Positions 3,043 to 9,375 of a DNA stretch of 14,933 nucleotides are shown here, piece after piece (within the stretch, counting starts at the first letter, position 1; each line of letters begins with the position of its first letter). The position numbers and the translations under genes were made by a program. This DNA is from a virus. Location: the UHGV virus genome UHGV-0050054; one strand, written 5' to 3'. The notes below the pieces were generated by a model, which saw only the letters and a list, made by a program, of their open reading frames with translations, had not been told where the DNA came from and did not search any database.

Positions 3043-3357
3043 TTAATTTATTCGTATGCCTGCTCTTTCTTCATCGAGTTTTTTTAGCTTGTATCGCATA
3101 GCTCTTACTGAATAAATTGAGCGGCAGGTTGCAATTGCTATTTCTTCTGCGGAGAACTTACCGAAAAGTGATACTTCGGCTCTTGTCCATCGTCTTCCAC
3201 GAAGTCGGCTAACAATGTCAGCTCCAATCCTTGTTGCTTTCGCCATTACTGCTTTTTCAGTCCTTTCCAGTTTTTCAGCGATAACTTCAACTGGCATTGT
3301 CGCCGCTACTTCGCGCAAGAAATCGACTTCCCATTTCTCCCATGGAGTCTTTTTCAT
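3043..3357 (-). CDS. Hypothetical protein (104 aa), possibly DNA-binding
   Basis: Complete ORF; two segments look HTH-like ([22 protein letters not shown] and [22 protein letters not shown]). Weak RBS. Confidence 0.5.
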
Positions 3358-3368
3358 AGGCGATACCG

Positions 3369-3851
3369 TTATTTGATAAGAAGTGAAGGTTTCCCAACTT
3401 TGAGTTGAGCGCCGGGGATATTTATTCCTGCTTTTAGTTGGTGTTTGATTGCCAGTTTGTCGGCTTTAATTGTCGTTTCAAACTCAACGTATTCAGGAGG
3501 AAGGGCGCTTGAGTCGATTATTTCTACAATTTCTGACGGTTTGCGGATTGTTACCTGGTGAATACCTGCTCTAATCTTTTTCTTGCCTACCATTTCAAGC
3601 GATGACGCTATATACGCCATAATGCTGTCAATCTTATTTTGAATTACTGCGGCTCGCTCATTTAGTGACTTTGCCTCTTCCTTGAGGCGTTCAGCATAAC
3701 CAGTTTCATTTTTAATGACGGAAAGAAGTTGCTCTATTTTATCGGTAAATTCTCCTTCCATGCCTTCTATTGTGTCAGCAATCATCTCTGGTTCTAAATC
3801 TGAATCCATCAATTTTGCGTATTCATTGGCAATTTCATATAGTTTGCTCAC
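3369..3851 (-). CDS. Phage protein, siphovirus Gp157-like (tentative); GTG start at 3851
   Basis: Track ORF 3369..3857; GTG at 3851 has GGAGG 6 nt upstream. Size and position directly downstream of recT fit the Gp157 family that often accompanies RecT/Erf; family call from memory. Confidence 0.6.
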   Translation of the reverse strand: MSKLYEIANEYAKLMDSDLEPEMIADTIEGMEGEFTDKIEQLLSVIKNETGYAERLKEEAKSLNERAAVIQNKIDSIMAYIASSLEMVGKKKIRAGIHQVTIRKPSEIVEIIDSSALPPEYVEFETTIKADKLAIKHQLKAGINIPGAQLKVGKPSLLIK

Positions 3852-4746
3852 TGGCAACCTCCAGTTTCGCTTTGCATTCTGCGTAAATGGCTTGTACGTT
3901 CTGCTGCAATTTCATTCCAGATGTCAGGCGATATGCTTCTGCAAAATATCGCTTCAAATCATCCATGTTTTCAGCCTGAGCCATTTCATCACAAAGAAGT
4001 TGTGCTTTATCCGTTATTTCCTGCTGGCGTTTCCGTTCATCTTCGCGGATATCTTCCTCTGATTTGTGCGGCATAACTGGTTCAGTCCACACACCTTCTT
4101 CTTCGTTTAGTACGTGAATAGCACTATCAAGACGTGATGCCTTAGGCCAATACTTGCTTGCACGCTTTACGACCGTCTTTCGCGCCATCTCATTCCAGTG
4201 ATTTACCCATGGTCCTTTATCGCTGAATGCCGCCTTGCTTGTTTTCCTTACAGCCTCAATTTCAGCCAGACTCATCTCTTCCGTTAGATAATCACCTGCT
4301 GGCGTCTTAACTGTGCAGTAAACGCCAACGATATCACCACGATCACCGAAGGCGTTGTATTTATGGGTTGGTGCTTTATCAAGCCCGTTTGACTCATAGG
4401 TATCGTTAGCATGAACAAGTTTTGCCTGACCCCATGAGATAACACCAGACTCCATTGCAATATGGAGCAATCCCATATAACTGATATCAAGGCACACCAT
4501 GCCGTCGCGCGGAACCAGATAAGCCAGTTTGCTAGCCGGGTTTAAGGTGATGCCGATCGCCGCTACATTGATGATGGCGTTCTGTGCGCTGGTTGGATTT
4601 GCCAGTGCTGTTTTAGCCAGGTAATCGTTTTTCTGGAAATACTGAATTGCAAACTGGCTTTCCTTAGCCCATGTCACCGTCTGTTCAGTCAATGCTCCGC
4701 AGAATAACTGCTCTTGCTGTTTAACGAATTCAACGATATTGCTCAT
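3835..4746 (-). CDS. recT: RecT-family single-strand annealing recombinase
   Basis: 303-aa ORF with GPWVNHWNEMARKTVVKRASKYWP, matching the conserved RecT core as I recall it from Rac RecT (GPWVTHWEEMAKKTAIRR...). GGAG RBS; ATGA overlap with the upstream gene. Confidence 0.85.
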   Translation of the reverse strand: MSNIVEFVKQQEQLFCGALTEQTVTWAKESQFAIQYFQKNDYLAKTALANPTSAQNAIINVAAIGITLNPASKLAYLVPRDGMVCLDISYMGLLHIAMESGVISWGQAKLVHANDTYESNGLDKAPTHKYNAFGDRGDIVGVYCTVKTPAGDYLTEEMSLAEIEAVRKTSKAAFSDKGPWVNHWNEMARKTVVKRASKYWPKASRLDSAIHVLNEEEGVWTEPVMPHKSEEDIREDERKRQQEITDKAQLLCDEMAQAENMDDLKRYFAEAYRLTSGMKLQQNVQAIYAECKAKLEVASEQTI

Positions 4747-5054
4747 GCAGCTTCTCCATAAATATGTCTGCGTTTGAATATTGCGAAGGCATATTCAGCC
4801 TTAACTCTTTCGGTTATTGCATCCCAGAACCATTCAGCGGCTTTTTCCTGATAGTTACAGTCATCATCTTCCAGCCAGTCGATAGCGTCCTTAGTGTGTT
4901 CATCTGGTTTATATGAGCGAAGCATTTCGCTTATTGGGTCGCAACGTTTGCAGAGACGATCAACTTCACTGTTGATTCGTTCGTAATCTTCATCGGTAAA
5001 ACTTGCGATGATTTGCGATATTTCACGCTTATCATTCAGAGTCAGAATCATCAT
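4743..5054 (-). CDS. Hypothetical protein (103 aa) in the position lambda gives to gam; no Gam similarity seen
   Basis: Complete ORF with AGGAG RBS, between kil-like and recT. Acidic, Cys-containing (CKRCD...DDDCNY). Confidence 0.6.
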   Translation of the reverse strand: MMILTLNDKREISQIIASFTDEDYERINSEVDRLCKRCDPISEMLRSYKPDEHTKDAIDWLEDDDCNYQEKAAEWFWDAITERVKAEYAFAIFKRRHIYGEAA

Positions 5055-5135
5055 CTTTCTCCTGTTCTTTGTGCTGATTGAGCATTTCTTTCATCTGACG
5101 AATGAATTCTTCGTCTTACCAGTTATCTGTAAAAC

Positions 5136-5288
5136 TCATTTCCTGCGATACCACGGAAGGTTGATAGCTGATTTCATCGCTTTATTTGCTTCAAGCCACA
5201 TTTTGGAATCACCAATAAATCTGGCTATTACTGCTTTGTTCTGTGCAGCACGAAGCATCTGGTGATTGATGGCTATTTCATTGCGCAT
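5136..5288 (-). CDS. kil: Kil-like host cell-division inhibitor peptide (50 aa)
   Basis: Not in track (under 60 aa). Manual translation MRNEIAINHQMLRAAQNKAVIARFIGDSKMWLEANKAMKSAINLPWYRRK; the IARFIGDSKMWLEA core resembles lambda Kil as I remember it. GAGG RBS 8 nt upstream; overlaps the cIII-like ORF as kil and cIII overlap in lambda. Confidence 0.55.
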   Translation of the reverse strand: MRNEIAINHQMLRAAQNKAVIARFIGDSKMWLEANKAMKSAINLPWYRRK

Positions 5289-5404
5289 AATAAGACCTCA
5301 ACTCTTTTCCATCCGTCACGTAATTTACGGGTGATTCGTTCAAGTAAAGATTCATTTAGTTGGAAGGCACCCATGCGAGCGCCTCCCGCGATTGCGTAAA
5401 TCAT
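5273..5404 (-). CDS. cIII: cIII-like regulator peptide (43 aa)
   Basis: Not in track. Manual translation MIYAIAGGARMGAFQLNESLLERITRKLRDGWKRVEVLLCAMK; the ESLLERITRKLRDGWKR core matches the lambda CIII central helix as recalled. AAGGA RBS. Confidence 0.6.
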   Translation of the reverse strand: MIYAIAGGARMGAFQLNESLLERITRKLRDGWKRVEVLLCAMK

Positions 5405-5427: not shown

Positions 5428-6396
5428 TTAGTAGGTTATTTTTGTTGCGAATACTTCGCCTTTTACGATGGCTGTTATGATATTTTTAGCAACATCTTCT
5501 GATGCACCAACCTTGATAAGGTCAGCAAGTATTTTGTTATTTACTTCTTTCCGGTGAGCTTTATCCTTTGCTCTACGCTCTTCTTCTTCCTTGATTCTTT
5601 TTTCTTCTGCTATTCTGGCTTGCTCTTTTGCTTCAGCCTCGCGACGGATTCGTTCAGCCTCCTCCTGTGCTTTTCTGCGTTCTGCTTCAATTGCTGCCTG
5701 CTTTTCTCTTTCAGCTCGTTCTGCTGCCTCTTTTGCTTCGCGCTGTGCTCGCTGCTCGGCTTCAATGCGTTCACGCTCTGCACGTTCCGCTGCGGCCTTA
5801 GCTTCTGCTTCTCGCCTTGCTGCTGCTTCAATTTCGGCTTTTGCCTTTGCTTCGGCTTCTGCTCTGGCTTTCTCTTCAGCTTCTCTTTTTAAGCGTTCTT
5901 CATGCTCTCGCTTTTCCTGCTCCGCTTTGAGTCTTGCCTCTTCTCTTTGGCGGTCAAATTCGCGATCCATCAAAATAGCTATTTCATGGTCAGACTCAAT
6001 TTGCTTTGCGAGAGCTTCAGCTGCTGCCTTAGCTTCTTCTTCGGCTTTAATCCGCGCCTGTTCTTCCTCATAATCAGTAAGAGGCTGGCGTGCCTTGGCT
6101 TTCAGCTCATCAAGGCGATAACGCACTGTCTTGCGGTTGGCATCAATTAGCTTTGGAATTTCCTTCAGTTCAGCAACAAGGTCTTTGCCAAGACCATCGA
6201 GATATGTTTTCGTCTGCGCAACTTTATACGCCAGAGAAGCGATCTCTTTTCTGCCCTTTGCCGTTGTGATATCAGGCACAAAGGACATAACTTCACGTTC
6301 AACCTTTTGGAGAATTTCTTCAATCTGGTCAGCAGACTGAAATACAATCATTGCATTTGCTTTTTCAATAACAACTAAATCTGTTACTTCACTCAT
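5428..6396 (-). CDS. Hypothetical protein (322 aa) with a long E/R/K/A-rich predicted single alpha-helix
   Basis: Track ORF 5428..6450; preferred start ATG 6396 with GGAGG 4 nt upstream. About 150 residues are runs such as EAEAKAKAEIEAAARREAEAKAAAERAERE; globular-looking N- and C-terminal parts. Confidence 0.65.
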   Translation of the reverse strand: MSEVTDLVVIEKANAMIVFQSADQIEEILQKVEREVMSFVPDITTAKGRKEIASLAYKVAQTKTYLDGLGKDLVAELKEIPKLIDANRKTVRYRLDELKAKARQPLTDYEEEQARIKAEEEAKAAAEALAKQIESDHEIAILMDREFDRQREEARLKAEQEKREHEERLKREAEEKARAEAEAKAKAEIEAAARREAEAKAAAERAERERIEAEQRAQREAKEAAERAEREKQAAIEAERRKAQEEAERIRREAEAKEQARIAEEKRIKEEEERRAKDKAHRKEVNNKILADLIKVGASEDVAKNIITAIVKGEVFATKITY

Positions 6397-6408
6397 ATAT
6401 CCTCCGTC

Positions 6409-6435
6409 AAAAAAATCGCCCTCACATTGGAGGGC
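6409..6435 (-). terminator. Intrinsic terminator-like hairpin just upstream of the 322-aa gene RBS
   Basis: Minus strand reads GCCCTC-caatgt-GAGGGC followed by GATTTTTTTGA (6-bp GC stem, 7-nt T run). Confidence 0.55.
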
Positions 6436-6530
6436 AAAGAAGATTTCCAATAATCAGAACAAGTCGGCTCCTGTTTAGTTATGAGCGACATTGCTCCGTG
6501 TATTCACTCGTTGGAATGAATACACAGTGC

Positions 6531-7807: not shown

Positions 7808-8140
7808 TCACCCCTCATACAGTAGCTTACTGCCTAATTTCATTTTCTGGCGACCAACACAAGTCACACCCATTTCACTGCGTGGCTTGCTGTACCATGT
7901 GCGCTGATTCTTGCGCTCAATACGTTGCAGGTTGCTTTCAATCTGTTCGTGGTATTCAGCCAGCACCGTAAGGTCTATCGGATTCAGTGCGCTTTCTACT
8001 CGTGATTTAGGCTTTCGAGTCAGCGAGAGAATTTTGCGGGTGTCTGGCTTTGCGCTTACCCCAACCAACAGGGGATTTGCTGCTTTCCATTGAGCCTGTT
8101 TCTCTGCGCGACGTTCGCGGCGGCGTGTTTGTGCATCCAT
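7808..8140 (-). CDS. N: Antitermination protein N
   Basis: 110-aa product MDAQTRRRERRAEKQAQWKAANPLLVGVSAKP... matches lambda N as recalled over most of its length, including the Arg-rich N-terminus; AGGAG RBS; nutL upstream. Confidence 0.9.
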   Translation of the reverse strand: MDAQTRRRERRAEKQAQWKAANPLLVGVSAKPDTRKILSLTRKPKSRVESALNPIDLTVLAEYHEQIESNLQRIERKNQRTWYSKPRSEMGVTCVGRQKMKLGSKLLYEG

Positions 8141-8478: not shown

Positions 8479-8507
8479 ATAGTACGATTTGTACTTTATC
8501 GAGTCAA
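8479..8507 (-). promoter_or_regulatory. pL-like promoter with overlapping operator
   Basis: Minus strand TTGACT (8502..8507), 17-nt spacer, TACTAT (8479..8484); palindrome AGTAC-N5-GTACT (8481..8495) overlaps the spacer and -10. Confidence 0.6.
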
Positions 8508-8632: not shown

Positions 8633-9292
8633 TTAACTAAATGTCTCTTCAGGCCACTGGCTGGCGATAACTTTCCCTACTACGGAACAGCTATCATTGC
8701 ATGGAATCATTGGATATTGCTGGTTTAGTGGCTGTAGGAACACCTGACCGCTATCCCTGATCAGTTTCTTGAAGGTAAACTCGTCACCACCAAGTCTGGC
8801 TATGCAGAAATCACCTGGCTCAACAGCCTGCTCAGGGTCAACGAGAATTAACATCCCGTCAGGAAAGCTTGGCTTGGATCCTGTTGGCGCGGTCATGGAA
8901 TTACCTTCAACTTCAAGCCAGAACGCACAATCACTGGCTTTTTTGGTTGTGCTGACCCATCTCTCCGCATCACCTTTGGTAAAGGTTCTAAGCTCAGGCG
9001 AGAACATCCCGGCCTGAACATGAGAAAAAACAGGGTACTCATATTGTTTTTTAACGGGGGCAGATGAGTATTCGCCAACAGGTGAAAATGTACCGTCGTG
9101 GTTGAATGAGACGTTATCAATACCAAGGTATTTAAACACCACACCAATCTCGTCAAGAGATGGATGACGAGATCCGCGCAACCAGTGACCAATTCCACCC
9201 TGCGTCATACCAAGCTCTTCAGCTAACTTCTCTTGAGTTATGCCGAGCTCTTTCATTCTGGATCTAGCCAGTTCATACCATTTCATTTTCAT
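8633..9292 (-). CDS. cI: CI-type prophage repressor (N-terminal HTH, C-terminal LexA/S24-like domain)
   Basis: C-terminal half ([38 protein letters not shown]...[28 protein letters not shown]...[11 protein letters not shown]) matches lambda CI as recalled, apart from a few substitutions; the N-terminal HTH differs from lambda. Track ORF begins at a TTG (9334); ATG 9292 or 9286 is more likely. Confidence 0.9.
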
Positions 9293-9301
9293 ACCCTTAT
9301 T

Positions 9302-9375
9302 ATTACGCTCTGTACTAAAACCATCCATGCACAAGATGTATTTTTTGTTTGCATTCTAAAAGTACATATCGTATT
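9302..9375. promoter_or_regulatory. Putative OR operators
   Basis: ATTACgctctGTACT at 9302..9316 and AGTACatatcGTATT at 9361..9375, 60 bp apart; the second overlaps the PR spacer and -10. Confidence 0.4.

Follow-up and report, generated by a model that had tools for sequence, protein, structure and literature searches.

In the 14,933-nucleotide stretch of the virus genome UHGV-0050054 analysed here (the window), a small gene on the minus strand at positions 4743 to 5054, which we call X, separates kil from the gene for a RecT-family single-strand annealing protein. We put the probability at about 60% that the protein, an acidic member of phrog_3486 predicted to be all-helical, is a very divergent member of the Gam superfamily, which would add a third sequence type to Gam and GamL, and acts as a Gam-fold, DNA-mimicking inhibitor of RecBCD. 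Its predicted fold and a faint sequence signal mark X as a very distant relative of Gam, and X is therefore most likely another RecBCD inhibitor. An initial annotation of this DNA had described X as an unrelated protein without resemblance to Gam that occupies the gam position. The 103-amino-acid open reading frame with its ATG start and the order cIII, kil, X, recombinase were borne out, the latter by matches of the neighbouring genes to PF02061, PF06301, and PF03837. The proposed positional replacement of gam is upheld by exchanges seen in the phages Dewey, HK639, and SEN22, and the evidence best supports an anti-RecBCD role. The supposed lack of relationship did not hold up, since X resembles Gam in predicted fold and acidic charge and shows a weak collinear profile match to it.

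X is a genuine, conserved phage gene, as its phrog_3486 match covers the full length of the protein (E 1.7e-59, PHROGs), the 90%-identity cluster containing it has 1003 members, the ratio of nonsynonymous to synonymous polymorphism (pN/pS) is about 0.07 (51 nucleotide alleles), in line with purifying selection, and relatives only 25 to 50% identical keep the same slot in elements of Escherichia coli, Enterobacter, Pantoea, Cronobacter, and Erwinia. Among 1.84 billion representative proteins, 54 matched X at E ≤ 0.001, most of them with about 100 residues. The large matches were set aside as spurious summed-repeat matches: P0058, P0061, and P0064 are repeat proteins of eukaryote type (saposin or WW), and P0067 is a chromodomain protein. 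A second in-frame ATG at 5049 to 5051 yields a protein of 102 residues starting at 5051. The Shine-Dalgarno-like sequence AGGAG at 5059 to 5063 (minus strand) lies 4 nt 5′ of the first ATG and 7 nt 5′ of the second. Since the second ATG is near this motif and is the start used both in public records and in the family alignment, X probably has 102 residues. In PHROGs the family is listed as "unknown function", all public records name it "hypothetical protein", and no mention of the X accessions was found in the literature searched. X alone gave no match to Pfam (E ≤ 0.1), NCBIfam, or the PDB sequences. As a query for loci in reference genomes, X alone found none, and an alignment of its closer relatives found one Enterobacter prophage.

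In the pL operon, X directly precedes the gene for the annealing protein, and gam can take its place. Over the RecT and Gp157 genes, the DNA of phage Dewey and that of the window are 96% identical; the homology ends at 4748, at the RecT start, and resumes at 5133, in kil, with a lambda-type gam in between. Phage HK639 has the order kil, GamL, RecT, Mu Gam-like protein. Salmonella phage SEN22 is 96.5% identical to the window over exactly 4743 to 5139 and nowhere else nearby; its X stands without RecT and precedes a RecE-like exonuclease, and no Gam, GamL, Abc2, or Gp157 was found in the whole SEN22 genome. Across 80 viral contigs whose RecT shares 87% identity or more with that of the window, the slot was occupied by X in 76 cases, by lambda Gam in two, by another small gene in one, and by nothing in one, and no two of X, Gam, and GamL occurred together in the nine loci scanned. 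From these three phage comparisons and the slot census we conclude that X forms an independently exchangeable cassette (4743 to 5139, minus strand) which comprises the gene and its 81-nt leader and extends from the RecT start to the kil stop. The alternative alleles of the slot are both of the known Gam-type RecBCD inhibitors, Gam and GamL.

More distant relatives of X remain linked to recombination genes. Cronobacter phage ENT47670 (X 49% identical) and Erwinia phage Midgardsormr38 (39%) have the order X, RecT, exonuclease, which parallels gam-bet-exo; their modules consist of RecT and the exonuclease, without Gp157. Relatives with 25 to 33% identity, from metagenomes and one Pantoea genome, and one with 52% identity from an Enterobacter prophage are located upstream of RecT-Gp157. 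Distant relatives of X directly adjoin RecT in all but one locus, where an extra gene intervenes.

The structure of X was modelled as a single chain with AlphaFold2 from 36 family sequences without templates. The model has high confidence, with a predicted local distance difference test (pLDDT) score of 91.9 and a predicted template-modelling (pTM) score of 0.79, and is all-helical, with helices at residues 6-17, 21-35, 40-47, 54-64, and 66-102. When it was compared with the PDB by Foldseek, five chains of GamS (lambda Gam; PF06064; PDB 2UUZ, 2UV1, and 5MBV) held both the highest probability (up to 0.75) and the highest template-modelling scores (0.53 for the query and 0.69 for the target), with a deviation of 2.7 Å over 75 columns. 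As GamS was the single best structural match among 48,164 PDB chains, the nearest PDB fold to X is that of the protein filling the same slot in lambda, between kil and the annealing-protein gene of the pL operon. According to the model, the fold of X is superposable on the helical fold of GamS.

X and Gam, both acidic proteins of about 100 residues, are only about 15% identical. An hhalign comparison of the X family with 103 Gam sequences aligned X residues 53-79 (HTKDAIDWLEDDDCNYQEKAAEWFWDA) to GamS residues 57-83 (P 0.0012), and the score of 22.6 was reached by none of 300 column-shuffled Gam profiles (mean 11.0, maximum 19.6). With filters off, a Gam hidden Markov model (HMM) gave 17.3 bits in HMMER for the family member P0072, collinear over Gam residues 6-92, and 12.1 bits for X; nine of the 36 family members outscored every reversed control, mostly in one register. 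The reciprocal X HMM gave 13.8 bits for the GamS of Dewey and 10.4 bits for that of lambda, with reversed controls at no more than 2.8 bits, and composition-matched shuffles reached the X-Gam scores only 0 to 3 times per 2000. In this register the DDD turn of a shared helix-DDD-x-[YF]-Q-E-helix segment falls on the same helix-helix junction in both proteins, and D8 and E11 in the N-terminal helix of X align, through P0072, with D8 and E11 of Gam; at each of positions 8 and 11, acidic residues make up more than 80% in the X family. The median isoelectric point (pI) of the X family is 4.65 and its net charge −9, compared with 4.99 and −10 for GamS. Conserved acidic positions are 8, 11, 21, 23, 25, 30, 32, 65, 67, 70, 78, 87, and 101, and by composition the family is DNA-mimic-like.

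Several results weigh against this assignment. There is no similarity between X and Gam at the level of BLAST or Pfam, and the signal described above, although reciprocal and collinear, is weak and not significant database-wide. The analytic P values of HMMER (1e-5 to 1e-7) are optimistic; the shuffles correspond to about 5e-4 to 1.5e-3, and the significance is therefore about 1e-3 per test. When the 36 family members were scanned against Pfam (E ≤ 10), the matches listed (25 of 38 families) were scattered single matches only and did not include PF06064. As the curated Gam family model is not matched, X is not to be filed as PF06064. When the X-family profile was run against all PDB sequences, Gam was absent at E ≤ 10 and unrelated proteins (alphaRep, ribosomal protein S15) scored higher. 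The Foldseek E-values against the PDB exceeded 1 and were not significant, which is usual for short helical proteins. In a comparison of the model with viral models Gam was not listed, and this search was uninformative; its low-ranking matches from Edno5 and Pocis76 gained no support from sequence searches and were discarded.

The two proteins also differ in detail. The N-terminal motif NAYxxxDR..W of Gam and GamL is mostly absent from X, and X lacks the invariant W15 and the RHYQQ and EKGLP motifs of Gam. The last helix of X is about 10 residues longer than that of Gam and has a basic patch and an E-[AV]-A end, which are both conserved and both absent from Gam. At the N-terminus, where Gam has one long continuous "plug" helix for the single-stranded DNA (ssDNA) channel of RecB, the model of X, which is a monomer model with the bound state outside its scope, has with high confidence two helices (6-17 and 21-35) and a predicted kink at residues 18-20. 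Finally, the module already contains Gp157, a putative end-protection protein, so that a second anti-RecBCD function is not strictly needed, and the tight linkage to RecT means that X could instead be a partner of RecT. In HK639 and Dewey, however, a Gam-type protein is likewise paired with a Gp157 or Mu Gam-like protein.

Gam itself, a dimer with acidic charge, imitates the end of DNA; it lies over the RecB arm and obstructs the ssDNA channel of RecBCD (PMC5218532). In the favoured reading X, probably expressed early from the leftward pL operon just before RecT, works in the same way and would form an acidic helical dimer resembling a DNA end. This dimer would sit in the site where host RecBCD binds DNA, and the N-terminal helix would enter the RecB channel. 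Phage DNA in linear and rolling-circle form would thereby be protected, and its ends would be left to the phage proteins RecT and Gp157.

Among the known inhibitors other than Gam, a close parallel to X is GamL of phi80 and HK639 (Rotman 2012, cited in PMC12315714), for which a Gam-like predicted fold has been reported (PMC12315714). GamL (94 residues, pI 4.59) occupies the same slot in the same architecture, kil-GamL-RecT-MuGam-like, and has D8-R9-x-E11 at the same residue numbers as X. Sequence similarity between X and GamL was not detectable (hhalign P 0.3), and whereas GamL resembles Gam only in its N-terminal 34 residues, X resembles Gam mainly in its C-terminal half. P22 Abc2, a small protein of a phage recombination module that binds RecC (PDB 8B1T) and modulates RecBCD, differs from X in being basic (pI 8.95) and encoded downstream of the recombinase. 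T7 gp5.9 is likewise a small acidic DNA-mimic RecBCD inhibitor encoded beside a recombination nuclease gene, but has only 52 residues. Neither showed sequence similarity to X (hhalign probability 0.15% and HMMER 3.6 bits for Abc2; hhalign probability 0.12% for gp5.9), nor did P22 Abc1. The end-binding proteins of the Mu Gam/Sipho_Gp157 type represent another anti-RecBCD strategy, possibly used by the same module through its gene at 3369 to 3857; they are Ku-like and bind DNA ends rather than RecBCD, and X matches neither family.

The initial annotation took into account neither this putative end-protection gene downstream of RecT nor the presence of arf in the corresponding slot of P22. Arf, a cofactor of Erf recombination, is acidic and encoded in the order kil-arf-erf (P22 arf at 4869 to 5012 of its locus, L008); unlike X it has only 47 residues, and its partner is Erf, not RecT. 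Arf matched X residues 13-43 with 6.9 bits compared with 2.6 bits for reversed Arf (hhalign E 0.012) and shares an NPI motif, which is not significant; the Arf family lacks the breadth needed for a profile, and the protein is too short for a locus search. Judged by sequence, Arf might be a truncated relative of the X/Gam superfamily. A broader and speculative extension, which we regard as rather doubtful, is that the kil-recombinase slot of lambdoid phages is held by one ancient, fast-diverging Gam superfamily, to which Gam, GamL, the X family, and perhaps P22 Arf in truncated form belong. Within it, X would be a mechanistically altered branch in which a kinked N-terminal helix replaces the channel plug and the conserved E-[AV]-A end of the extended C-terminal helix serves as an ssrA-like degradation signal timing the inhibitor or as a new contact to RecBCD or RecT. 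On this view SEN22-type phages, listed as having no anti-RecBCD gene, would possess one, and HK140-type phages would have two layers of end protection.

The place of arf also bears on the first alternative to a RecBCD inhibitor, namely that X is a recombinase accessory factor like Arf, which binds or loads RecT or bridges RecT to Gp157 or an exonuclease and leaves RecBCD untouched. The overlap of the X stop with the RecT start, the retention of X upstream of RecT in relatives of 25 to 50% identity, adjacent in all loci but one, and the slot and faint match shared with Arf all fit this idea, but the Arf match is within the noise for a 47-residue protein and the fold match of X is to Gam, a RecBCD binder. 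As the X of SEN22, which is 96% identical, occurs without any RecT and beside a RecE-like exonuclease, and Dewey and HK639 use RecT-Gp157 without X and with Gam or GamL instead, an obligate partnership with RecT is disfavoured, and we consider an accessory role unlikely.

Less probable still is that X is a Gam-fold DNA mimic directed primarily not against RecBCD but against another nuclease or defence, such as SbcCD, a restriction enzyme, or an end-sensing defence system. DNA mimics share the acidic helical fold, an interaction of Gam with SbcCD has been reported (PMC5218532), the N-terminal helix and C-terminal tail of X differ from those of Gam, and anti-defence genes abound in the early-left operons of these phages. 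However, the exchange partners at the slot are known RecBCD inhibitors, X is consistently coupled to recombination genes and not to anti-restriction genes such as ral, and no feature indicates a specific alternative target. The least likely explanation, that the resemblance to Gam is the coincidence often seen when small helical bundles are superposed and X has an unrelated early function, would account for the Foldseek E-values, the failure of database-wide sequence searches to find Gam, and the other PDB proteins that equal Gam's score against the X profile, but not for a best match among all PDB chains that is the occupant of this very slot in lambda and Dewey, nor for the agreement of sequence register, helix boundaries, charge, and the D8/E11 positions.

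Two further observations concern the X family itself. The E-[AV]-A end (Glu in 75% and the final Ala in 83% of the sequences; positions 4743 to 4757 of the window hold the last four codons and the stop) is similar to the ClpXP degradation tags of ssrA type or to a docking peptide, and Gam has no equivalent. Chimeric database proteins (P0003, P0009, P0021, P0022, and P0024) combine the first 45 to 80 residues of X with unrelated C-termini, e.g., DUF551, which suggests recombination joints or frameshifts within the gene in some prophages.

The window comes from a lambdoid or P22-like coliphage, whose early region it covers, and its segment 3300 to 5500 is 97 to 98% identical to phages vB_EcoP-683R2, Louie, Kapi1, Gally, mEpX1, and HK140. 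The minus-strand operon encodes, in this order, an N-like antiterminator (7808 to 8140), several small proteins, a 340-residue protein (5428 to 6450), cIII (5273 to 5404; PF02061, E 4e-15), and kil (5136 to 5288; PF06301, E 1.7e-20), followed by the 81-nt gap and X. Translationally coupled to X through a 4-nt ATGA overlap of stop and start (4743 to 4746) is RecT (3835 to 4746; PF03837, E 2.7e-32; phrog_148), followed by Sipho_Gp157 (3369 to 3857; PF05565, E 1.8e-36; phrog_253), which overlaps the RecT end, and by a 104-residue helix-turn-helix protein (3043 to 3357; phrog_11492 and phrog_323) as the final gene of the conserved block. A sigma-70-like promoter on the same strand, TTGACT-17 nt-TACTAT at 8479 to 8507, lies between the repressor gene (8633 to 9334) and the N gene and is likely the pL that drives the operon including X, and no significant promoters or terminators were found between kil and RecT. 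Chi sites were absent from the window and from SEN22, which is uninformative, as fewer than one site is expected. The 81-nt leader (5055 to 5140, minus strand) contains tiny reading frames of 7 codons, overlapping the kil stop, and 20 codons, overlapping the X start; some records annotate a 35-residue "hypothetical protein" there (Kapi1_014), and distant relatives have reading frames of 37 to 56 residues at this place.

In the recombination module formed by RecT and Sipho_Gp157 (3369 to 4746) no recognisable exonuclease was found. PHROGs names the Gp157 family "Mu Gam-like end protection"; since its match to Mu Gam PF07352 (E 0.0023) is below the Pfam cut-off, this label is unproven. In public records Gp157 has 160 residues and starts at 3851. 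The helix-turn-helix protein is labelled "D5-like regulator" in other records and "similar to P22 Abc1" or "Abc1-like" in phage Gally, and a phmmer search with P22 Abc1 found no match in the window at E ≤ 1e-3, including this protein. An Enterobacter prophage (L099, 5191 to 5499) has a clear Abc1 homologue at the corresponding position. P22 Abc1 was reported to trigger cell death via a P4 satellite (bioRxiv 10.1101/2023.04.06.535777). The 340-residue protein directly upstream of cIII has a long central stretch rich in Glu, Ala, Lys, and Arg and belongs to phrog_1376 (unknown function); related phages annotate it as "TolA protein" or "cell envelope biogenesis protein".

RecBCD inhibitors set the use of the phage versus the host recombination system, and several defence systems, among them retron Ec48, P2 Old, and Gabija, are triggered or licensed by them. 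A survey published in 2025, the most thorough of its kind, covers 325 lambdoid recombination modules and, in its accessible text, distinguishes four anti-RecBCD types, lists MuGam as the sole anti-RecBCD protein of HK140, with no phage nuclease or ssDNA-binding protein beside the annealing protein, and places SEN22-type phages in a class without an anti-RecBCD protein; gene X is not discussed in that text (PMC12315714). If X is a Gam-type inhibitor, it would be the third Gam-fold sequence type in phages and prophages of Enterobacterales, and the survey would have to be amended, because phages of the SEN22 type may possess an anti-RecBCD gene after all and pairs of a Gam-type and a Gp157/MuGam-type protein would be common rather than exceptional. 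The class without an anti-RecBCD protein would then shrink. With its predicted anti-RecBCD function, X fills an annotation gap and extends known biology without adding a new principle, and it would provide a new natural scaffold for blocking RecBCD in recombineering or to potentiate antibiotics.
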